The notes beneath the pieces are model-generated. The model was not told the origin of the DNA and did no database searches. It saw only the letters and a program-made list of their open reading frames with translations. A DNA stretch of 64,000 nt, taken from contig OZ336870.1 of NCBI GenBank assembly GCA_965287045.1, positions 108,128,001-108,192,000 of the forward strand, given 5' to 3'. This DNA comes from Carcharhinus amblyrhynchos (lineage: Eukaryota). How positions within the stretch are numbered: the stretch's first letter is position 1; each line of letters begins with the position of its first letter. This document shows positions 5,491 through 62,595 of this stretch, in pieces. The position numbers were made by a program, and so were the translations under genes.

Positions 5491-7259
5491 GCATTTTTTT
5501 TTACATTATCAAGACAAAACCATGAACAAAGCCACAAAACTCCAGGCTAGGGTGAAGTGTGGTACTGCCTACATGTAATGTTACACTAATTCTGCAATTG
5601 TTTGAGATAGACACAGAACTATGTCACTGCTACATAACACCATTCTATTTTGCAGTTACAAGTAATTTGCCAGTTATGAAAATTATCAGAAATAACACTG
5701 GAAAGCTGTTCTGGAATCTAACTACCTCCTGATGACACATTCTTGATTTTCTTAAGGGTTTGAATGTACCTTGGTTTCTCACAATTGACGGACTGAGTTT
5801 CCAGGACATGATGACATGCAGGTGTGTGCTTTGACTGGTTGAAAGGACTCCATAACAATGATATCATCCTAAAAATCTTGTGCTGATAAATCAACTACTT
5901 CCTCCTTACAGCATGTGAAAAGTCCTACCATCTGTGTACACTTCCTATCAACTTTTTAGGTCATTTCCCATGTTGACATTTATAGTACTAAATGCCTTTG
6001 CCTATAATGTGCTGTAATTACACCCCCCTAACAGAAGTGTTTCAGTCCTTTCATTGGAAAGTGACTGTAATTACAGCATGACAAATTTATATGGGCAGTT
6101 CCATAATAAATATAGAACTTACAACAGAAAATGAAAACGAGTACAAAACACATGACTTTAAAATAAGGAGTGAATTTCATGTGTGCATCCTGACCCAATT
6201 ATCCCTTTCTAACCTTACTTCAAAATATTGCATTTGCTTTTGCAAAATTGGAATCTGAAGGGGATAAACTTCTTAACCAGTTGCTGCCATGAGGAACTGG
6301 ATGATGCAAGTTGCAGGGAGCTTTATGGCTTGAACTCCATCAGAACAAGGAAAAAGGTATTGGAAGTCTGGACTGCCAGCATTTGGCTGCAAATATCTAG
6401 AAGGGTTTGACCATAGAAGAAATGCTGGGACATTCAATATTTTCTGAAATTGTTGCAGTTTGAATCTATTTCATTTTAACTCTGCTCAAAATCCTCTTCC
6501 TGCCTTGAGGCCTACTTGAACTCCACAAAAGTGTCTCAGACATTTTCTCATGAAGCTTCCTCCACACTTTTGCTAATGCAAAGCCAACTAGAGTTAAATT
6601 GGGCATGGCCAAGAAGTAAAACAGATGCTGCAGCATTAGTTATCCTAACACACACAAACACACACTCCAACATCCAGTTCCCATAACTTAGGTAGAACTA
6701 GCGATAATGCCTTTTTTGTGTCACGTATGAATTTAAGTTAATCCCAAAAAGTAACGAAGATCCAGCTGTCATGATGTGATATGTGCAATACTAATCTTTA
6801 ATTTCATCTGATGGCCAAATATACATTGAACTGCTTTAAAAGCAATTTGAAAAAAAGCAGGCAAAGATGCTGTCTTAAGATGACAACGACAGGCCACTTG
6901 ACATGTCTGATTTTCCAGGTTGAACATTCTGGAAGTTTTCAATGTGGTTTATAATCAAGACATGCCAAGGCAATCTCCTATGGAATTTCATATCTGTTGA
7001 TGTAAAGATTTACTTAAAAGATGAACTAAAACAGTACTCAATATCCTATAATTTGCTAATCTATAGATACATCTTTCAGGTACAGACAGAAAGTCTACCA
7101 GGACAATGACTATATTAGTGTTCTTGCTAGCTTATCACAAGGAAGAATGGTCCATTCAGAAGTGAATGGCTGGGACATTAGACAAACCAATCAACCAGGC
7201 CATAAAACAATAGCCAATATCAGTCTAGACTTGAACTAACCAATTATCTTCTGGAGAAC

Positions 7260-7462
7260 GATGTCCAAAGGTGTGCAGGTTAAATGGAGTGACCATGCAA
7301 AATTGTTCCTTAATGTCGCAAAATGTATAGATTCTAGGGTTAGAGAGGTAAACGTGCAGGGTTAAAAGGATTGGCCCTAGCCAAGATGCTAGGTCAGAGT
7401 GTCACTGCGGACTTGATGGGCCAAACAGCCTCCTTCTGCACTCTAGGGATTCTATTCTATGT
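7260..7462 (+). repeat. V-SINE 3' half
   Basis: tccaaaggtgtgcaggtt...ctagggattcta. Confidence 0.7.
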
Positions 7463-7632
7463 GATTATCCAACTCATTGTGAGGAAGAGGGTTCAGGTAA
7501 CCAGAATAAATATTTTGAAATGTATGAAATATATTTTATTACAACTCACGCAGCTAAAGAGTCTACAGGAACTCTGCCAATGGAGCAGTAGACCATCTCT
7601 TTCTCCCATTTTCAAATTCAGAGCTCTGGTAC

Positions 7633-7910
7633 AGTTTGAATCCAGATGTGGGTATGCTGGTGTTGGACTGGCGTAAACACAGTAAAAAGTCTGACAACAC
7701 CAGGTTTTAGTCCAACCTATTTATTTGATAATATACTCACTAGCTTTCGGGGTTACCCCCTTGTCTGTGCTTTATATGCTCTGTCTGAGGCCAGAACTCT
7801 CCATTCACCTGACGAAGGGGGTAACCCCGAAAGCTAGTGAGTATATTATCAAATAAATAGGTTGGACTAAAACCTGGTGTTGTCAGACTTTTTACTGAGT
7901 TTGAATCCAG
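7633..7910 (+). mobile_element. Short non-autonomous Penelope-like element (inverted pseudo-LTRs) with 13-bp TSD
   Basis: AGTTTGAATCCAG at both 7633-7645 and 7898-7910. Perfect 83-bp inverted repeat 7680-7762 / 7815-7897. Hammerhead core in the right arm. Confidence 0.8.
7803..7842 (+). ncRNA. Minimal type I hammerhead ribozyme motif
   Basis: ATTCAC-CTGACGA-A-GGGG-GTAA-CCCC-GAAA-GC-TA-GTGAGT: stem I ATTCAC/GTGAGT, CUGANGA and GAAA core boxes, 4-bp stem II with a GNRA loop, palindromic AGCT mini stem III. Confidence 0.7.
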
Positions 7911-8305
7911 CACAGAGGTAGAGATTTTCAATCAAATGGAGTCTCAGGTGCAATATCATCAACTTTTGGAAAACACAGATTATGTTTGAAAGAGACTGTC
8001 TCCAGAAATTGCAGTTTACATTTGCTTCATCCACACTGGAATTTCAACACCACTATGGGCAAATCTGTCTCAGCATTGAACAACCATGAAGGACTCAAAC
8101 AGTATTTACACTATTTTTAGCCTTTTATTACCAAATCTTAAATCTAACCAAAACATAATTTCCTACTGTATAACTTGTAATTTTGCATGTTCACGAGTGT
8201 GTGTGTTGCGATGGTTGGGACGTATGTTTACTTTTTTGAATATCGTTACTTGGGTGGGTTTTTTAGCACACTAGGAGCTGAGCCCTTTATATTTAAACTC
8301 AAGAA

Positions 8306-8630
8306 AGGCAACACAGTGGTTAGCACAGCTGCCTCATAGCGCCAGAGACTCGGATTCAATTCTGGCCTTGAGTCACCGATTGTGCAAACTCTGCACATTC
8401 TCCCCATGTCTGTGTGGGTTTCCTCCGGGTGCTCTGGTTTCCTCCCACACTCCAAAGATGTGTGGGTTAGGTTGACTGGCCAGGCAAACTAAATTGCCCC
8501 TTATTGTCAGGGAGATTAGCAGGGTGAATACGTAGGGTTACAGGGATAGGCTGGATTGTTGTCAGTGCAGGCTCGGTGCCAACTGGCCTCCTTCTGCACT
8601 GTAGGGATTCTGTGATCCTATGGTTCTATG
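8306..8630 (+). repeat. V-SINE (HE1-like)
   Basis: A/B boxes, V domain, tail. Confidence 0.85.
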
Positions 8631-11600
8631 AAAGCCTGATGGACAGAGTTCTTTGCAACGAGCTTAAATAATTAAGTGCAGACACGGAACTGATCCTGGT
8701 AAATTACAACAAAAAGTTATGATCAATTGAAGAGTGAGAAGAAAGGCAAGTCCTGGCACGTGTCTTCAATAGTCAAATATAGGCAAACAATTTGGCAATT
8801 GGAGTGACAATTAACAGTCAGGACATTCAGTGCTCTGCAACAAAAGGAAGCCCAGTCACATGAGCACCATGTGTTTCTAATTGTGCACAAATTCATTTAT
8901 GGAATAGCTGCTCTTTGTGCAGTCCAACATTATTTTCATGCCAATTTATCCCAGTCACATTAACCATCCCCAAGCTCCAATGTCCCACTCATTTTAAATC
9001 TTCAGGTTTGGTCATTCACTCAACTGTGCATGAATATGCTGCCTTCCCTCCCCTCCGTTACCACAAAGCTGTCTGGCACTTACTGTCTAGGCTCACCCAA
9101 AGCACAGTCTCTCAGGTCTAAGGAACAAAGTCAGAATCTTCAGGTGAGAAAATGAAATTACTCCATGTTTACTACAATACTGGCAGTAATTATAGTCAAA
9201 ATGAATAAGTTGCAAGTTAAATACATCACCATTTTGCAGTTTACACATTTCTGTGAATTACATATTAGGTGAAGTAATATATATTCAGGTTCTGATGTGA
9301 AGGTCCTCATACTTCGTAGCAACTCTGTTGCTATTATCAGAGGTTAAAATATTTTACAACTCATGGCCACAATGTGTGTTGTTTGACTAAGTATGAATAG
9401 AATTGTCATTTAGGTTTATCTATTCTGCTCCATGGATGTTACAATCAGATATTATTAGAGGCTTCCTTTACTGAGATGCTACTTCTGACAGGATAGTGTA
9501 AATGGCATATTGCAAGGTTACTGTAAGTAGTTAACATATAATCAAGCAACACCACAAATTCAACATTTAAATTGCTTTTTATGTGGGATCTTCACAAATT
9601 GACTATGAGTTTGCCTATATAATAAGTGACTATAATTCTAACTTATCCAAATGTTATGCAATGTGTTTTAAGAAGTCCTGAGGGCATGAAAAGTTGAAAG
9701 AATTTGGATTTCTCATTCAGTAAATGCAGAGTTAATGTACTACATGGAAATATCCTACAATAGCCTTGTCCTAGAGCAGGTCTTCCTACAAATCTTTCTA
9801 CAAAATTTCTAACATATGTAATGGCCCCTTAAAGAGAATTACTGTAAATATTAAAATAACATTTTTGAAAAAATTATTACAGATATAAATGTGATATCAA
9901 AACAAGTAGTCAAGGCCATGGACCATACAGAGTCTTACCTTGAAGTATTCCTTCTCACTTCCCTCAATTTCACCTACCACAATCTTCCCCATCACTATTA
10001 AGCTCACCCTCTCACGACTTCTCATAAGTATGAAAAGCCAATCAACAAAATCAGTCTCAAAAGTAGTCACTCTCTTTAAAGTAAAACACCTGTTTCTTCA
10101 TCTCTTCACCACTAGCGCAAGACCATCCAACATTCACTTCTTGGGCATATTTGACAGTCAACCAATCCCTATTCTCTGACACAGCTCTTTCAAAGGTTGC
10201 CATGTTCAAAAACCCATATTTTCTTATTCTCTTCAGGTTAACCATTCTCTCCATCCTTAATGTTGACATCATCCTGCAAAAATGCACATATCTTTTCTAT
10301 TGAGTTCCTCTACCTAGTTCCAGTCCACTGGCAGCAATGAAATTGGTCGGGACAACCTTAACATCCTCTGCAACTACACTCATCATCCGTCTTCATTTGC
10401 CTCAAATTCTACACCTCTTTTGCAGAATTAATCATGTAACCTTCTTCTATTGCACCACTCTCAAGGTTCTTCCAGTCATCTGTCCACGACCTCAACATAG
10501 TTCTTCCTAAATCATCTTTTATCACTTCTAGTAATCCCAGAGCTTCATCCTTGCCTACGCCTCTCCACTCATTAATTCCATTCACACACCTTTTATGCCA
10601 TGAACATCGTGGATTTAAGGACTATTGCCACAATTTTTGACCATCTGGCAAATATCTAATCTGGGAGAAATCAAAATTTCCTTCACTGCAATTTTCAATG
10701 CCATCCTTTTGTGCTCCTGCCAGTACTGATGTATTGCTATCCCAAGTCCTGTGACTCCTTTCACCCTAGTTAAATCCTAGCATTACATCCAACTGAGCTG
10801 AATACTTTACCTCACAGTTAGACCATCGCCACATCCTTCTATAACTGTTACTATTCTCTACTTGTTCTATAACATTCACTACTGCCATTAAAAACTCTAA
10901 TCCATGCACCTGTCATCTTCAGGATAGACTTTCCAAACAATATTTTTGCTTGCCTTCTTCCTTTACCTTTACAAACATCAACTAAAACAGCACAGTATAT
11001 CCTCTCTAGCACAAAGTCTCACAACTGAATCAGCCCAGCTGTCCCAAAGTTCTGCCCTGGCAAAGATACTTCCAAGATTCTTTGACTTGTTTTCAAATCT
11101 CTCTGCAGCTATAGTTGGTTCCAGATTCACGAGTTGCAACTCGACAATTCTGCCCACATCATCCATTTACCCAAGTTCAGGGCATTCTCCATTCATTTCA
11201 GCAACTACATTGTATCGCCCCCACCCTTTCCCCTGCTGGATTTCTGTTCTTTTAACTGCCAATCTTTGATTTTTTTTTACACTGTTGTTGAGAATGCATT
11301 TCAAGGCTGTAATTCAATCAAGATTTCCTCGACACTGAATTTGTATCTTACTGTTGCCAGGCTCCGAGGCTCTGGCTCCAATTAGTAATAACATTGCATA
11401 TTATCTAACGTTTAACGGGATCTCATGCAAGCCCCACCCCCTTGGCCTACCTCAACTCAGCCAAACTAAAGATGCTGTCATCTGCCACATGGCAAACGGG
11501 AAGAAAATTTAAAAGAGTTCAAGACAAGATGCGAAGACCCCTCTCCACTTACACCCGGAGATATGAAAAATCTATCTTGGAGGGGGTCGGTTGGCAAAAA

Positions 11601-12242: not shown

Positions 12243-12269
12243 CGGCTTCCTTCCGACTAAAGCAGTCAT
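12243..12269 (-). CDS. SEPTIN11: First coding exon of a septin-11-like gene (MTALVGRKP); the rest of the gene lies beyond the left edge of the window
   Basis: Minus strand reads caggATG ACT GCT TTA GTC GGA AGG AAG CCG|GTGAGT, i.e. 9 codons then a perfect splice donor. This resembles the human SEPT11 N-terminus MAVAVGRPS, lies in a CpG-enriched zone, and has the expected head-to-head position relative to SOWAHB. Confidence 0.75.
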
Positions 12270-17859: not shown

Positions 17860-18066
17860 AATCCGGAATGTAGAGTGACAGCCGGATCGTCCTATGAGAG
17901 ACAGCACCGTGACGTCACTCCGAGCCAGCAGCCAATGGGAGCCTCTGTAAGGGGGCGGGCTAAGCGCAGGTGAGCGGGCAGGTGGGGGAGCGGCAGTGCC
18001 GGCGGAGCGGCTCCCAGACCCCCAGCGGCCGGGAGGAGGAGGGCGAGCAGTGACAATCCGCCAGCC
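17860..18066 (+). promoter_or_regulatory. SOWAHB proximal promoter: CRE, CCAAT box, GC box, CpG island
   Basis: Palindrome GTGACGTCAC at 17909-17918, CCAAT at 17932-17936, GGGGGCGGGC at 17951-17960. CpG-rich sequence continues into the CDS. Confidence 0.7.
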
Positions 18067-20073
18067 ATGGCCGCCACCTTCAGTCAGGAGGCCGTTCTGG
18101 ATTTCCTGCTGCTCCACCGCGGCAAGGTGAGGAATGTGGAGCTGACTGCCCACTTCAGCCGCTTCCTCAGAGACCCCGAGCGGCAGCTGCAGAGCCGCGA
18201 ACTCTTCAAGGAGTTTGTCAACTCGCTCGCTGTGGTGAAGTTGGAGGGCGGCGAGAAGTACATCGTCCTGAAGAAAAGGTACGTGGAACTGATCCCCGAA
18301 GAGGTTGACACTTCGGGCGACGCCGTCCTGCCTGCTCGCCCGGTCAGGGGAGAGAAGGAGAGGCAAAGGGCAGCTCAGTGCACCCAGCTGCCGCCGCCTG
18401 CTGCTGCTGGACAGCTGGCAGGGAGTCCGCTCCGGGCTCGGCAAAGGCAACAGGAGGCAGCAGCAGCACCGAAAGGCAGCAATGCTCACCGTCCCACCAG
18501 AGCCCAGGAGAAAGCTGCTCCCAAAGAGGAAGTGAGTGGATGCACCTCAGTGCGCGAAGATTGTCCCTCACAACCTGAGCCGACAAGGAAAGATGCCAAA
18601 AGAACCAATGTAGACCAAGCCGTTCGACAGAGGGATTCGAGTGGAGTGACCAACTCAACAGAGCAGAAATCTATAAATCTTCAAATCAAAAACAGAAGAG
18701 GTCCTGTATCTCCAAGCCATTGCACTGGTGACAATGTGAGAGTATTTAATAGAGATAGCAAAGGCAGCAGTAATTGCACAGCCTCGCCCAACATTTCTCA
18801 TCTCGCCCCTCCTCCCTCTGTTGTTAAGTGTAAAGGGCAGGGACTCTATAGACTACCCCCGGAGAACAATTCCGTGGTCATTTCTGATGTACCTGTCACT
18901 GAAAACTTGCAGTTGAATTGCGAGCAGAGTCCGCCGGAGAATTTTGCACAGAAGTCAGAAAAACGTTTTCAGAGAGAGCAGAGGCAGAGCTGTGCGGTTA
19001 CTCAGCAGAACAAAATGATCAACCACTGGCAGAACCCTTCATCATCAAAGAAACGTAGAAGTACTGACAAAGTACAGAAAATATCACCAACCGAGAGTGA
19101 CACCAAAGTGCTTGTAAATTCAGCAATAAATACAGAAGAACGCATTCAAAAGAATCAGAGAAAGCTGTCGCAGCAGCAAAGTCGGGCATCTGCTGGAGAT
19201 GGGCAGCCATTGGGTAATAAATGGCATTCTAAAGCGCAAAGTATATTGCCCAAAATACGCAAGCCTTCTCTTAAAAATATTAAGAGTAATGTACTTTCTC
19301 AGAAAATGCCAACAGTTCCATTAGTCGGTAACAAATCAACTACTCCAAAAATAGTCGACAGAGAAACAGTTCGGCACAAAAAGGATCAGCCAGTAAGTTT
19401 AGCCCAGACAGAGAGTCACAACGAGTGCAGAAATGAGGATCCATTAAAAACTGAGGGTGCTTCAGAAAAACCTTTTCTCGATCCTACTGAGCATGAATGG
19501 ATGGTGGAGACAGCTGTTGGCAGGTTTGGACAGGCTTATGGTTTATTCTGCAAAGACCCTAACTTTGCCATGAAGAAGGATTTTATTTCTGGCTACACAG
19601 TGCTTCACTGGATAGCAAAACATGGCAACCACCGTGCGCTCTCTCGCTTTATTAATGGTGCAAGTAAAATGAAAGTTAAATTAAATGTAAACATTAAATC
19701 TACCTGTGGGTACACTCCTTTACACATAGCTGTTATACATGAACAGTTGAAAATCATTCAATACTTAGTGAAGAAATATCAAGCAAATGTTAATTTAAGG
19801 GACCACAGTGGTAAGAAACCTTGGCAGTACCTGAACAGTGACTCTCCCAAGGATGTGTGCCAGATGTTGGGTGCTCCTGCACATAAACATGCAATGCATT
19901 CTGAGAACAACAGCACATTTCGAGCAAAGAACAACACGCAAGGATCGTCTCCTGCTATAAGTAGAAAAACATCTTTCACTGCTCTTCTCAAATCTCCACG
20001 GGTTCTTCACAACCTCATGCATTGGGACTCTGATCGCTGTCATACAATAATTGAGGATAATGAACAAGACTGA
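18067..20073 (+). CDS. SOWAHB: Ankyrin repeat domain-containing protein SOWAHB (single exon, 668 aa)
   Basis: Strong Kozak context (ccagccATGg). SOWAH N-terminal domain FSQEAVLDFL...RELFKEFVNSLA...KYIVLKKRY. C-terminal ankyrin repeats DFISGYTVLHWIAKHG / CGYTPLHIA / RDHSGKKPWQYL as in SOWAHB. Syntenic position between SEPT11 and SHROOM3. Confidence 0.92.
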   Translation: MAATFSQEAVLDFLLLHRGKVRNVELTAHFSRFLRDPERQLQSRELFKEFVNSLAVVKLEGGEKYIVLKKRYVELIPEEVDTSGDAVLPARPVRGEKERQRAAQCTQLPPPAAAGQLAGSPLRARQRQQEAAAAPKGSNAHRPTRAQEKAAPKEEVSGCTSVREDCPSQPEPTRKDAKRTNVDQAVRQRDSSGVTNSTEQKSINLQIKNRRGPVSPSHCTGDNVRVFNRDSKGSSNCTASPNISHLAPPPSVVKCKGQGLYRLPPENNSVVISDVPVTENLQLNCEQSPPENFAQKSEKRFQREQRQSCAVTQQNKMINHWQNPSSSKKRRSTDKVQKISPTESDTKVLVNSAINTEERIQKNQRKLSQQQSRASAGDGQPLGNKWHSKAQSILPKIRKPSLKNIKSNVLSQKMPTVPLVGNKSTTPKIVDRETVRHKKDQPVSLAQTESHNECRNEDPLKTEGASEKPFLDPTEHEWMVETAVGRFGQAYGLFCKDPNFAMKKDFISGYTVLHWIAKHGNHRALSRFINGASKMKVKLNVNIKSTCGYTPLHIAVIHEQLKIIQYLVKKYQANVNLRDHSGKKPWQYLNSDSPKDVCQMLGAPAHKHAMHSENNSTFRAKNNTQGSSPAISRKTSFTALLKSPRVLHNLMHWDSDRCHTIIEDNEQD

Positions 20074-39310: not shown

Positions 39311-39382
39311 GGAGATACTGGAATTGGACTGGGGTAAATACTGTAAGAAGTCTCACATCAGCAGGTTAAAGTCTAACAAGTC
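39311..39382. mobile_element. Degenerate fragment of the same Penelope-derived element end
   Basis: ttggactggggtaaatactgtaagaagtctcacatcagcaggttaaagtctaac aligns to 7663-7716. Confidence 0.55.
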
Positions 39383-39843
39383 CTTTTTGCTGCATCAGCT
39401 GATGTTGCTCTGCCTGCCTTCATGTCCTCCCATTCCTCCTCCAGGCCAAAGGGTATCCTAGCAAAATGCCAATGATTAAGCACTGTCTTTCTCCTGGTGA
39501 CTCCGAGATCTAGTATAGTATAACGAGACTGGGATAATTATTAATATCATAGTAAAAGATACTCTGGGAAAAAATGACAATAATATAATTGAATTGCACA
39601 CTGAGATTTAGAGCGACACACTCAAATCTTAAATTTAAAACAATTTCATAGGAATGAGGGAAGAGCTGTTTAGATAGTATTCATTGTGTAAATAGACAGA
39701 GATGGAAGAACAGATTTTTCTTGTTTTAATGGAATTTTTTTTTTGGAACATTTTGAATAATTAAGAGGGCCTAAAGAATGCACTTTGAAAATCAAGGATC
39801 AGTCAAAGTCATGCTGTGGATATGCTGGCGTTGGACTGGGGTA

Positions 39844-42800
39844 GAGGACTGTAGACAGGGCTTTAAACTAATTAGGGGGGGGGAGGGTGCGAGGGTAGGT
39901 GACGCTACGAGGTCTAAAGTTAAGGATAGGGTACAGGTAAGGGAAGAGGCCGAGGATGTCCCAATTGGTGGCGTTACGGCAAATAGGGTCCAGGTGAAGG
40001 CTGGGATGAAAGCACTTTATCTGAATGCACGAAGCATTCGGAATAAAGTGGATGAGCTGGTGGCGCAGATCGACACAAATGGATACGATCTGGTGGCCAT
40101 TACAGAGACGTGGCTGCAAGGTGACAGGGACTGGGAGATGAATGTACAGGGCTATCAAGTGTTTAGGAAGGATAGGCAGGAGGAAAGAGGGGGTGGCGTA
40201 GCTCTGCTGATTAAGGATAGTATCAAGGTGGTAGCAAGGGATGATATCGGAGCCAAAGAGCAGAAAGTGGAATCGTTGTGGGTGGAGATTAGGAACAGCA
40301 AAGGGAGGAAGACGCTGGTGGGTGTCGTCTATAGGCCCCCGAATAATGATCTGGAGGTGGGGCGGGCTGTTAACACGCAAATAAGTGCGGCGTGCAGGAA
40401 TGGGACGGCAGTAGTTATGGGAGATTTCAATCTGCATATTGATTGGTCGACCCATGTTGGACGAGGTGGGCTCGAGGAGGAGTTCCTGGAATGCTGCCGG
40501 GATAATTTCCTTGAACAGTGTGTGTTGGAGCCGACGAGGGAGCGAGCTATCTTGGATCTGGTGCTATGTAATGAGGCGGGTAGAATTAGGGACCTTGCGG
40601 TGAAGGATCCTCTTGGAGAGAGTGATCATTGTATGGTGGAGTTTCTGGTGCAGATGGAGGAGGAGAAAGTGGGTTCCCGGACACGCGTCCTTTGTTTGAA
40701 TAGAGGGGAGTATGGTAGGATGAGAGAAGAATTGGCGAATGTGGACTGGGGGAGTGCGTTGGAAGGTAGGTCTGCTGAGGAGCAGTGGAGGATCTTTAAG
40801 GAGATCTTTCTTGGTGCTCAGCAGAAATTTATTCCGATGGTTAAAAAGGACAGTAGGAAGAGAGGTAATAAGCCGTGGATAACGAAGGAGGTGAAGGAAA
40901 GTGTTAAATTAAAAGCGGAGGAATTTAGAGTAGCTAAGAGTAGTGGGCGAGAAGAGGATTGGGAAAGGTTTAAATGTCAACAAAGATTGACAAAGAAGTT
41001 GATAAAGGAGGGTAGGAGAAGCTATGAGGCTGGGCTAGCACTTAATATAAAAAAGGATAGCAAGAGTTTTTATAAATATATAAAAAGGAAGAGGCTGGCT
41101 AGGGTGAACGTTGGTCCTTTAGAGGATGAGAAAGGGGAGCTAGTGGTAGGGGATGGGGATATGGCTAAGGTCTTGAATAACTTTTTTGTTTCTGTCTTCA
41201 CGGAGGAGGACGTGAATAATTTGCCGGGTGTTAGCGATGGAAAGGTGGTAGGAATGGAGGGTCTTAATGACATTACTGTTACTAGAGAGGTGGTGCTCGA
41301 CAGACTGGAGGGGCTGATTGTGGACAAGTCCCCAGGACCGGATGGAATGCATCCGAGGGTTCTGAAAGAAATGGCGGAGGTGATAGTGGATGCCTTGGTG
41401 GTTATTTTCCAGACGTCGCTGGATTCCGGGGAAGTGCCGGAAGATTGGAAAACGGCTAATGTTACGCCGTTGTTTAAGAAGGGTGCCAGGCAAAAGGCGG
41501 GGAATTATAGGCCGGTTAGTTTAACGTCTGTGGTAGGTAAAATGTTAGAATCCGTCATTAAGCAGGAAATTGCGAGGCATCTTGAAGGGAATTGCTTGAT
41601 AGGGCGGACGCAACACGGTTTCATTAAAGGGAAGTCGTGTCTGACAAATTTACTGGAGTTCTATGAGGATGTGTCTAGGGCAGTGGATAGAGGAGAGCCG
41701 GTGGATGTGGTCTTTCTGGATTTTCAGAAGGCGTTTGACAAGGTACCTCACAAGAGGTTATTGCAGAAGGTCAGGGGACATGGAGTTGGGGGTAGGGTGT
41801 TAGCGTGGATAGAGGATTGGTTGTCAAATAGGAGGCAGAGAGTGGGGGTCAATGGGTGCTATTCGGATTGGCGGTTGGTGACTAGTGGGGTGCCCCAGGG
41901 GTCGGTGCTGGGGCCTCAGCTATTTACCATTTATATAGATGATCTGGAGGAGGGAACCGAGTGCAGGGTGTCGAAATTTGCTGATGACACCAAGATTGGG
42001 GGAAAGGCAAATTGTGCGGAGGGTTTGGAGAGTCTGCAGAAGGATCTAGATAGGCTGGGCGAATGGGCCAGGAAATGGCAAATGGAATTTAATGTTGGCA
42101 AGTGTGAGGTGGTCCACTTTGGTAGGAATAATGGTAGGAAGGACTATTACTTACGTGGCGAAAAACTGCAGCAGGCGACGGTGCAGAGGGACCTCGGGGT
42201 CCTTGTGCATGAGTCGCAAAAACCCAGCTTGCAGGTGCAGCAGGTGGTCAGGAAGGCGAATGGGATGCTGGCCTTCATAGCGAGGGGGATTGAATATAAA
42301 AGTAGGGAGGTCTTGCTGCAGCTGTATAGGGCATTGGTGAGGCCGCAGCTGGAGTACTGTGTGCAGTTTTGGGCGCCGCACCTGCGCAAGGATATTTTGG
42401 CCCTGGAGGGAGTGCAGAGGAGGTTTACTAGGCTGATACCGGAGTTGAGGGGATTGAGCTATGAGGAGAGGCTGAATAAACTAGGCTTGTACTCGTTAGA
42501 GTTTAGAAGAATGAGGGGAGATCTCATTGAGACGTATAAGATGATGAATGGGATGGATAGGATAGAGGTGGAGAGACTCTTCCCGCTCAAAAAAGACAGT
42601 AGGACTAGGGGGCACAGCCTCAAGATAAAGGGGAGGCGGTTTAGAACGGAGTTGAGGAAGAACTTCTTCACTCAAAGGGTGGTGAATCTCTGGAATTCTC
42701 TGCCCGTTGAAGTGGTGGACGCTGCCTCGCTAAATATTTTTAAGAAGCGGGTTGATGGGTTCTTGATAAGAGAGGGGATTAAGGGTTATGGGGAGAGGGC

Positions 42801-42916
42801 GGGAAAGTGGAACTGAGCCACAACAGATCAGCCATGATCTTATTGAATGGTGGGGCAGGCTCGAAGGGCTAGATGGCCTACTCCTGCTCCTATTTCTTAT
42901 GTTCTTATGTTCTTAT
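39844..42916 (+). mobile_element. Young CR1 LINE, 5'-truncated (no ORF1) with complete intact ORF2
   Basis: Uninterrupted APE+RT frame; (TTCTTATG)n tail; GTA at both junctions inside a Penelope-derived element. Confidence 0.95.
40006..42816 (+). CDS. CR1 ORF2: APE endonuclease plus reverse transcriptase (936 aa from MKALYLNARS)
   Basis: YLNARSI, ITETWL, GDFN, LDL, SDH (APE); [33 protein letters not shown] (RT). The start codon is inferred. Confidence 0.88.
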   Translation: MKALYLNARSIRNKVDELVAQIDTNGYDLVAITETWLQGDRDWEMNVQGYQVFRKDRQEERGGGVALLIKDSIKVVARDDIGAKEQKVESLWVEIRNSKGRKTLVGVVYRPPNNDLEVGRAVNTQISAACRNGTAVVMGDFNLHIDWSTHVGRGGLEEEFLECCRDNFLEQCVLEPTRERAILDLVLCNEAGRIRDLAVKDPLGESDHCMVEFLVQMEEEKVGSRTRVLCLNRGEYGRMREELANVDWGSALEGRSAEEQWRIFKEIFLGAQQKFIPMVKKDSRKRGNKPWITKEVKESVKLKAEEFRVAKSSGREEDWERFKCQQRLTKKLIKEGRRSYEAGLALNIKKDSKSFYKYIKRKRLARVNVGPLEDEKGELVVGDGDMAKVLNNFFVSVFTEEDVNNLPGVSDGKVVGMEGLNDITVTREVVLDRLEGLIVDKSPGPDGMHPRVLKEMAEVIVDALVVIFQTSLDSGEVPEDWKTANVTPLFKKGARQKAGNYRPVSLTSVVGKMLESVIKQEIARHLEGNCLIGRTQHGFIKGKSCLTNLLEFYEDVSRAVDRGEPVDVVFLDFQKAFDKVPHKRLLQKVRGHGVGGRVLAWIEDWLSNRRQRVGVNGCYSDWRLVTSGVPQGSVLGPQLFTIYIDDLEEGTECRVSKFADDTKIGGKANCAEGLESLQKDLDRLGEWARKWQMEFNVGKCEVVHFGRNNGRKDYYLRGEKLQQATVQRDLGVLVHESQKPSLQVQQVVRKANGMLAFIARGIEYKSREVLLQLYRALVRPQLEYCVQFWAPHLRKDILALEGVQRRFTRLIPELRGLSYEERLNKLGLYSLEFRRMRGDLIETYKMMNGMDRIEVERLFPLKKDSRTRGHSLKIKGRRFRTELRKNFFTQRVVNLWNSLPVEVVDAASLNIFKKRVDGFLIREGIKGYGERAGKWN

Positions 42917-43061
42917 GTAAACACAGTAAAAAGTCTGACAACACCAGGTTTAAGTCCAACTGATTTATTTGATACTATCAAGTGCCATTTATAGAATGAT
43001 TTATTTGATACTATCAAATAAATCGGTTGGACTTAAACCTGGTGTCATCAGACTTTTTACT
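42917..43061. mobile_element. Second, internally deleted copy of the same Penelope-derived inverted-repeat element; its left end (about 39819-39843) is displaced by a CR1 insertion
   Basis: Arms AGTAAAAAGTCTGACAACACCAGG...TTTGATA and their reverse complement are near-identical to 7680-7730. Confidence 0.75.
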
Positions 43062-43391
43062 CAGTCAAAGTCAACATGGTTTTGCAGAAGAGGAATGGTG
43101 TTTATCAAATTTATTAGTGTTGAAGGTGCAACTTGTACAGAAGATAAAGAAGAGTTGACAGATGGAATGTGTTTGGATTTTCAAAAGGTTTTCAATAAGG
43201 TCCACACAAAAGGTTAATACACAAGTGCTCAGAGAGCTGGCGGTAATATCGAGATCCAAGTGGTCAACGACAAGAAGCAAAGAGTAATGATTAATGGGGC
43301 ATTTTTAGGTTGGCAGGCTGTAATTAGTGGAGTGCCACAAGGATCAGTGCTACAGCCTCAGCTATTTACAATCCATACTAATGATTTACAT

Positions 43392-58184: not shown

Positions 58185-58523
58185 TTAAAGTGAAGAGGTA
58201 AATTTTGTTTGCGAGGCGGCAGGCTCTGGGTGGCTGGCAGGTGAGTGAGCCGTCCTTTGTGATACAAAGTCAGCAGGCAGGCTCTCCAACAAACACTTCA
58301 GCTGCTCCTCACCCAGCTTGATCTTGTCGTCCAGCTCCCGCTGCTCCAGCAGCAGAGCTGCCTTCATCCTCACAAAGTGCTGGTAGTCTTGGAATTGCTC
58401 CTCTGTCAAGTAGTTCTCCAGGATGTCCAGGACCACACGTGCCCTGCGATCCAGATTCTCCTTCAGTTCCTTGGCATCCTCGTGTTGGCTAGTCAGAAGT
58501 CTCCGCTTCTCATTCAACAGATT
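58185..58523 (-). CDS. SHROOM3: SHROOM3 last coding exon (end of ASD2 and C-terminus ...FTSSL*)
   Basis: TTTCAG acceptor; NLLNEKRR...[19 protein letters not shown]...[37 protein letters not shown]; TAA stop; in frame with the previous exon. Confidence 0.92.
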
Positions 58524-58559
58524 CTGAAACATAAAATGCACAACTTTTCAGTTAACTCT

Positions 58560-62152: not shown

Positions 62153-62322
62153 TTTACTTCTTCCCTCCACTGAAGACCACAATCATTTCAACAACTACCC
62201 TGAGACAGAAATATTAGCCCTCCTATATGTTACAAGTTCTAAATGATAAGAACCAAAGCCTCCCTCTGTTGATTACATAATATGAAATCAAACCAAAAGC
62301 AGCATGGGTTAAGATTACGTAC

Positions 62323-62595
62323 ACGCTCCTCAGCATTTGTATTTTCATCCAGAGTCTTCAGGATATTTTCCACTCGAGCCAAACGACCGGAGAGGGAAAG
62401 CAGCAAGTTCACTACTTTATCCAAATCCCCAATGAACATCTTGTACTTTTCAAACTCGTTGGACTTGCACAGGCCTTTAATCATGTTCTCCACATCCTCA
62501 CCCACAGCACTGTTCAGTTTCATGTCAGCTGCAAGGTTCTCCTTGGCTTCACGTAGGGTCTGGAGTTTGTACGTTATACTTTCAATTAGCTCAGA
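62323..62595 (-). CDS. SHROOM3: SHROOM3 penultimate coding exon (273 nt, ASD2 domain)
   Basis: Polypyrimidine tract and TGTAG acceptor; [19 protein letters not shown]...[27 protein letters not shown]...EER; donor GTACGT; phase 0 on both sides. Confidence 0.92.

Follow-up and report, generated by a model that had tools for sequence, protein, structure and literature searches.

The segment at positions 7633..7910 of the window (the whole stretch of Carcharhinus amblyrhynchos DNA analysed here, 64,000 nucleotides of contig OZ336870.1) is, with a probability of roughly 0.9, a 252-bp insertion composed of two head-to-head, 5'-truncated 3' ends of an autonomous Penelope-like retrotransposon (PLE), one of them carrying a tail of about 35 nt. 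It likely represents the dead-end of one recent retrotransposition event, and the hammerhead motif contained in it is predicted to be inactive at this locus.

The sequence surrounding the insertion presents a target-site duplication (TSD) identical at 13 of 13 positions, as the earlier note had described, and this duplication encloses a mismatch-free 83-bp inverted repeat, with arms at 7680-7762 and 7815-7897 and 52 nt between them, which that note had likewise reported correctly. The repeat can be extended to 88 nt with a single mismatch, running into the TSD. Folding of the whole element yielded a predicted energy of -176.5 kcal/mol (z = -22) that none of 200 shuffled sequences attained. The parent element was located by stepping upstream, in other copies, from the sequence of the apparent 52-bp spacer into one long ORF. 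The right arm (7762-7897) matches L129:5838-5973, which lies 3' of an intact 893-aa ORF, at 136 of 136 positions, and the left arm corresponds, in reverse complement, to the final 83 nt of the pLTR plus the next 34-35 nt, in the arrangement that a tandem transcript would have. T7762 is common to both arms. The identity of the right arm to the pLTR of an intact PLE substantiates the Penelope-like origin put forward in the note, while its "spacer" is the longer arm's own sequence, derived from the parent 3' UTR, so that there is no true spacer. Judged from these alignments, all bases between the TSDs are accounted for by the parent element. The features of EN+ PLEs are recognizable at several levels: a single ORF with a reverse transcriptase (RT) plus a GIY-YIG endonuclease at the C-terminus in the parent, a partial tandem (pLTR) combined with an inverted 5'-truncated copy and a TSD, and a tail at one end which, at 34-35 nt, falls within the 30-40 bp range. 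The combination of an inverted truncated copy with a 30-40-bp tail is known for PLEs from the available text of two previous studies (PMC8557442, PMC3846280).

Table 1. Features of the insertion and of its genomic neighbourhood (window coordinates).
Feature	Position	Strand	Remarks
Left target-site duplication	7633..7645	.	13 bp; G7645 also compatible with the tail; one copy only in runs X3, X5, X6, X7 and X8, where the site is empty
PLE tail	7646..7679	-	34 nt downstream of the pLTR end in the parent, ending 1-2 nt 5' of the ORF's ATG (pLTR end at L129:2949, ATG at L129:2985)
Inverted pLTR copy, 5'-truncated to the final 83 nt	7680..7762	-	stem II, GAAA and cleavage triplet; without CUGA box
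Parent 3' UTR/pLTR copy, 5'-truncated to the final 136 nt	7762..7897	+	spans the apparent 52-bp spacer
Minimal type I hammerhead motif	7803..7842	+	from sequence, fold and family conservation; predicted cut after A7836
Right target-site duplication	7898..7910	.	identical to left
Likely first coding exon of septin (SEPT11-like)	12243..12269	-	9 codons from ATG, then GT donor; CpG-rich; in frame with exon 2
Single-exon ankyrin-repeat gene	17974-20073	+	
Last exons of ASD2-domain Shroom gene	58185-58547, 62239-62595	-	

The 893-aa frame is intact in three copies (L090/L091, L129 and L130). Two of these are full-length candidate sources: L129 (G000:C13:53308985-53311973), in which the two pLTRs differ in stem II variant, and L130 (G000:C23:3618339-3621327), a tandem with a rearranged second unit. 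The encoded protein matches the Pfam RVT_1 model with 38 bits (cut-off 29.6) and contains YIDD and DKG motifs, a CX4CxxC linker at residues 755-763 and a GIY-YIG motif at residue 792, for which a fragment of the ORF gave a sub-threshold Pfam match (E 7e-4). A PDB sequence search with the 893-aa ORF returned 0 matches. Neptune-type PLEs are described in the available text of PMC8557442 as having this anatomy, including a CX2-5CxxC motif in the RT-EN linker that is common to Nematis, and the linker motif and domain anatomy accordingly point to a Neptune-type parent.

The family is abundant. The exact 33-nt hammerhead variant of the insertion occurs 997 times in the genome (2.9 Gb), and the family pattern of the hammerhead has at least 16,303 matches, with 0 for the reversed control. 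Arm lengths in 30 loci of the 33-nt variant are continuous, from below 60 nt to about 1.5 kb (the locus limit), and inverted pairs among the matches to this variant lie up to 3.2 kb apart; across the family, arms range from tens of bases to 3 kb and grade into full-length coding copies. The family appears to be active. In addition, one hammerhead pair was seen four times at spacings of about 50-75 kb in G000:C1:5337800-5521953, which suggests a segmental tandem duplication. The window itself also contains a decayed, related pLTR-end fragment (39324-39377, 81% identical) and a second, older hairpin of the family (39799-43073) without hammerhead, with arms at 42925-42981 and 43005-43061 and a 13-bp TSD at 39799-39811 and 43061-43073. 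A 3-kb LINE of CR1/L2 type with a 1013-codon open frame (39775-42816) is located inside the tail of this older hairpin, and hence inserted after it. Searches of the openly available literature returned no paper on this shark PLE family, and for newer work on PLE mechanism nothing beyond PMC8557442, PMC3846280, PMC4209133, PMC11167929 and one bioRxiv preprint.

The insertion site was compared in contigs of eight out of 24 sequencing runs, one of which (X14) gave no call. Contigs from X1 and X2, two runs of one sample that is possibly the source of the assembly, span both junctions, ruling out an assembly artefact. In five of the eight runs (X3, X5, X6, X7 and X8), a single contig joins the two flanks with one TSD copy, the configuration of an empty site. 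The flanks in X3 differ from those in the window at only 3 of 723 bases, and the insertion therefore either is polymorphic or postdates the separation of two very close lineages. Furthermore, the arms of the subfamily, analysed in 25 distinct loci after removal of 5 duplicates, differ from their majority sequence at 39 of 9238 positions, and a single neighbouring element, which belongs to another subfamily, contributes 12 of these 39. The copy in the window differs from the subfamily majority at two tail positions, both CpG, and at one edge artefact. The young age assigned to the element in the note is borne out by these data. Differences between the two arms of a pair (12/2751) are about as infrequent as those from the majority; private changes shared by both arms were found at only 1 position within the subfamily, and arm-to-arm gene conversion is not needed as a source of the perfect repeat.

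Footprints of the integration process were sought in 100 short sister insertions, the first in genome order with both arms short among 874 and 752 in two size classes. Exactly one tail was present in 97 of them and two tails in none, and the TSD measured 12-14 bp in 73. The arms overlap by at least 1 nt, a microhomology, in 48 cases, and show a negative overlap, with extra templated or untemplated bases, in 42, part of which stems from rare variants missing from the comparison library. The centres of eight hairpins (L149, L154, L160, L182, L199, L200, L213 and L219) consist of repeated templated snippets of the arm ends, and we take them to resemble polymerase-theta end-joining scars. In 25 of 27 pairs, the stem II variant was shared by both arms (shuffled mean 6.8, maximum 15), and the same held for 22 of 24 pairs. 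Among the arms with differing variants, L022, L050 and L092 are true chimeras, and one further case is a mis-paired nested insertion. The chimeras indicate that one RNA cannot be the sole template, and the matching arms could alternatively reflect the activity of few source loci at a time.

These footprints, taken together with the in vitro behaviour of a Poseidon-clade protein, suggest a two-nick, two-start model of hairpin formation. The RT/GIY-YIG protein, likely as a dimer, would nick both target strands about 13 bp apart, and each nick would serve as primer for reverse transcription from either of two internal starts on an RNA spanning the pLTR-ORF junction, one at the pLTR end and the other about 35-38 nt further. 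The template would usually be one RNA or a sibling RNA. Both cDNAs would stop early, at this locus after 136 and 117 nt, and end joining would link the short products in head-to-head orientation, in many cases through small palindromic microhomologies. In vitro, both strands have been reported to be cut and extended, with two internal RT starts defining the tail (PMC11167929, available text). We hold tentatively, at slightly below even odds, that an active family left thousands of young, partly polymorphic hairpins in which the one-tail rule, the 12-14-bp TSD and the matching arms reflect a dimer that primes both strands, using two fixed positions on one RNA, and joins the cDNAs at palindromes.

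An alternative origin, which we regard as unlikely, is that one cDNA or antisense template folds back on itself and is copied back after self-priming at a short palindrome. The junctions do peak at palindromes, with 24 of 200 arms ending at an AATATT-type and 25 of 200 at an AGCT-type site, many arm pairs are nearly symmetric, and the concordance of the arms is compatible with such a process, for which Arkhipova (2013) argued from junction palindromes (PMC3846280, available text). Nevertheless, the arms at 7633..7910 are unequal and overlap by 1 nt, and the tail occurs on either the longer or the shorter arm, while a copied-back arm cannot acquire a tail absent from its template. The three chimeric pairs would furthermore require two templates, and purified PLE protein is described as extending both strands (PMC11167929, available text). 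Fold-back remains a rival of the two-nick model for symmetric cases.

The earlier note had viewed the insertion as a non-coding, hammerhead-bearing mini-element, similar to a MITE or a retrozyme, and a unit of this kind would move as such through the PLE protein. The best 40 of 1534 candidates from the genome search with the element, which are those that were scored, do look like a family, all of them about 250 bp long and with TSDs, and the pLTR end and the tail, the cis sequences for mobilisation, are in place. Sequences flanked by pLTRs can be acted on in trans by PLE proteins (PMC3846280), and non-LTR retrozymes reportedly derive from pLTRs (bioRxiv 10.64898/2026.07.22.740005), according to the available text of both sources. 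However, the uniform length is a ranking effect, and the loci concerned differ in their centre junctions. The junction of 7633..7910 is single-copy genome-wide, even allowing 1 mismatch, and the junctions recurring among the sister insertions (11/100, with a 28-nt centre) are found in different variants and with the tail on either side, indicating independent origins at a palindrome. A fixed repeated structure, as in a MITE-like family, is thus absent, and the insertion is a single inverted one with one core, in place of the tandem hammerhead units of a non-LTR retrozyme. With a unique junction, varied sister arms and an intact-ORF parent identical at its 3' end, the mini-element view is very improbable and we abandon it in favour of the insertion of two truncated parent ends.

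The hammerhead motif is itself well defined. A complete core at 7809-7836, with stem I and a GNRA-capped stem II, had been noted earlier and is seen on the plus strand: stem I pairs 7803-7808 with 7837-7842, followed by CUGACGA (7809-7815), an unpaired A7816, stem II (7817-7820 with 7825-7828, closed by a GUAA loop), GAAA (7829-7832), GC and UA (7835-7836). The segment 7803..7842 therefore presents the core of minimal PLE hammerheads (CUGANGA, GAAA and UH with helices I and II) and also their additional traits, namely A7816 before stem II, the G7817-C7828 pair (G10.1-C11.1) and the palindromic AGCU at 7832-7835, the mini-stem III of a minimal dimer-type hammerhead in the note's account. The minimum free energy fold of an isolated 56-mer contains stems I and II, weakly above shuffled sequences (z = -1.6, 12/200). 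A search of positions 6000-10000 against Rfam (E <= 10) yielded three chance matches elsewhere and no hammerhead match, which is what the lack of helix III in the motif would lead one to expect. Within the family, the GNRA loop is restricted to the subfamily of 7633..7910, most copies having CUAA or other loops.

In the context of the insertion, this fold is predicted to be lost. For stems I and II, equilibrium folding predicts pair probabilities of 0.59-0.97 when the right arm is folded by itself and of 0.00 for the whole element and for transcripts ending at 7842. In plus-strand RNA, the left arm would be transcribed first and pair with the core. The hairpin is thus predicted to block the ribozyme in plus-strand RNA, in keeping with the competition between both folds envisaged in the note, and the hammerhead at this locus is a passenger inherited from the pLTR.

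The opposite possibility is that the hammerhead cuts RNA in vivo, setting the 5' end of some inserts, or works on plus-strand RNA made from the locus. Of 85 arms retrieved with queries outside the core, 72 have it intact (the set counts two arms from overlapping loci twice, and one of its queries reaches into the 5' strand of stem I), 9 of the 13 core breaks are G-to-A changes at CpG, and stem II keeps 3-5 pairs in 70 of the 72 arms despite its variable sequence and length, including one G-C to A-U change. The conservation of core and stem II suggests that the motif is under selection in the source elements. Covariation is nonetheless thin: in an alignment of 29 rows, 11 of them distinct and from related copies, one stem II pair and no stem I pair was changed on both sides, a count reached by 203 of 500 shuffles. 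Among the sister insertions, moreover, the base immediately following the predicted cut opens only 2 of 200 arms, fewer than the 8, 5 and 8 arms that begin at -1, +1 and +2, and the arms hence provide no genomic sign of cleavage. About ten junctions that fall on an AGCT or CTAG palindrome include the cut site; cleavage could formally account for them, but microhomology explains them. Monomeric minimal hammerheads are also described as uncleaved in vitro (PMC4209133, available text). We therefore consider a role of cleavage in vivo improbable. The lack of excess ends at the cut agrees with the in vitro result that insertion of PAc does not need the ribozyme (PMC11167929, available text).

The insertion lies in an intron of a septin gene. 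Exons matching the Pfam Septin GTPase domain are located on the minus strand 37-52 kb to the left of the window and exon 2 at -25.2 kb, and a motif scan of the window for septin revealed no GTPase exon. Relative to the course of septin transcription, the candidate first exon, called by inspection, lies 4.3 kb upstream of the insertion, which is thereby placed in intron 1. We take the ankyrin-repeat gene to be SOWAHB-like, and the order of the ASD2-domain, ankyrin and septin genes presumably matches SHROOM3-SOWAHB-SEPT11. Since septin is transcribed from the minus strand, the full ribozyme is antisense to its pre-mRNA. The sense arm there is the truncated left arm, which ends short of the CUGA box, as had been remarked, and hence has no core; a full core is confined to plus-strand RNA. 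The expectation of an 83-bp double-stranded RNA in the septin pre-mRNA consequently stands insofar as the hairpin can form in intron 1, and fails for the complete ribozyme, which is absent from that transcript. The 5' splice-site consensus GTGAGT follows the predicted cut in both arms (7735-7741 on the minus strand, 7837-7842 on the plus strand), and the left arm brings it in sense into intron 1.

The locus alone carries little weight, as a recent intronic insertion usable as a presence/absence marker. The family is of somewhat greater weight: its numerous, countable insertions document the way PLE inserts are assembled. If the proposed mechanism is true, PLE integration would become directly testable on a Neptune-type protein, the parent having an intact 893-aa frame and, at its 3' end, full identity to the insertion.

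The layout of the insertion has already been published (Arkhipova 2013, Craig 2021, Cervera 2014, Frangieh 2024), and the locus represents a very young copy of a known insertion type; the following comparisons refer to the available text of each source. Like the EN+ PLE insertions of Craig et al. 2021 (PMC8557442) and Arkhipova et al. 2013 (PMC3846280), it has head-to-head truncated copies, a tail at one end that reaches the ORF start, a TSD and junction palindromes. Unlike in those cases, only 83 and 136 nt remain of the two copies, neither with coding sequence, and the TSD measures 12-14 bp in this family versus 8-10 bp in the rotifer EN+ PLE cases. The motif resembles the minimal PLE hammerheads of PMC4209133 in its type I core, the additional base separating positions 9 and 10.1, the G10.1-C11.1 pair, the palindromic 15.2-16.2 segment, the high variability of stem II, the thousands of copies per genome and the pairs on opposite strands. 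The at least 16,303 matches to one family pattern compare with about 4,000 hammerheads reported in coelacanth and about 9,000 in Xenopus, and position 17 is A in the subfamily of 7633..7910 versus U in most copies. With the Poseidon element PAc of Anolis (Frangieh et al. 2024, PMC11167929), the family shares a tail delimited by two element ends some 35 nt from each other and a hammerhead near the pLTR-ORF junction. In contrast to PAc, where the ORF starts inside stem II, the ORF here begins past the tail, about 95 nt beyond the ribozyme, and the protein has a Neptune-type linker. Finally, the insertion is, like non-LTR retrozymes (bioRxiv 10.64898/2026.07.22.740005), non-coding, pLTR-related and equipped with a type I hammerhead, whereas retrozymes are tandem units with a hammerhead each and the insertion at 7633..7910 is a single inverted one with one core, which has not been amplified as a unit.
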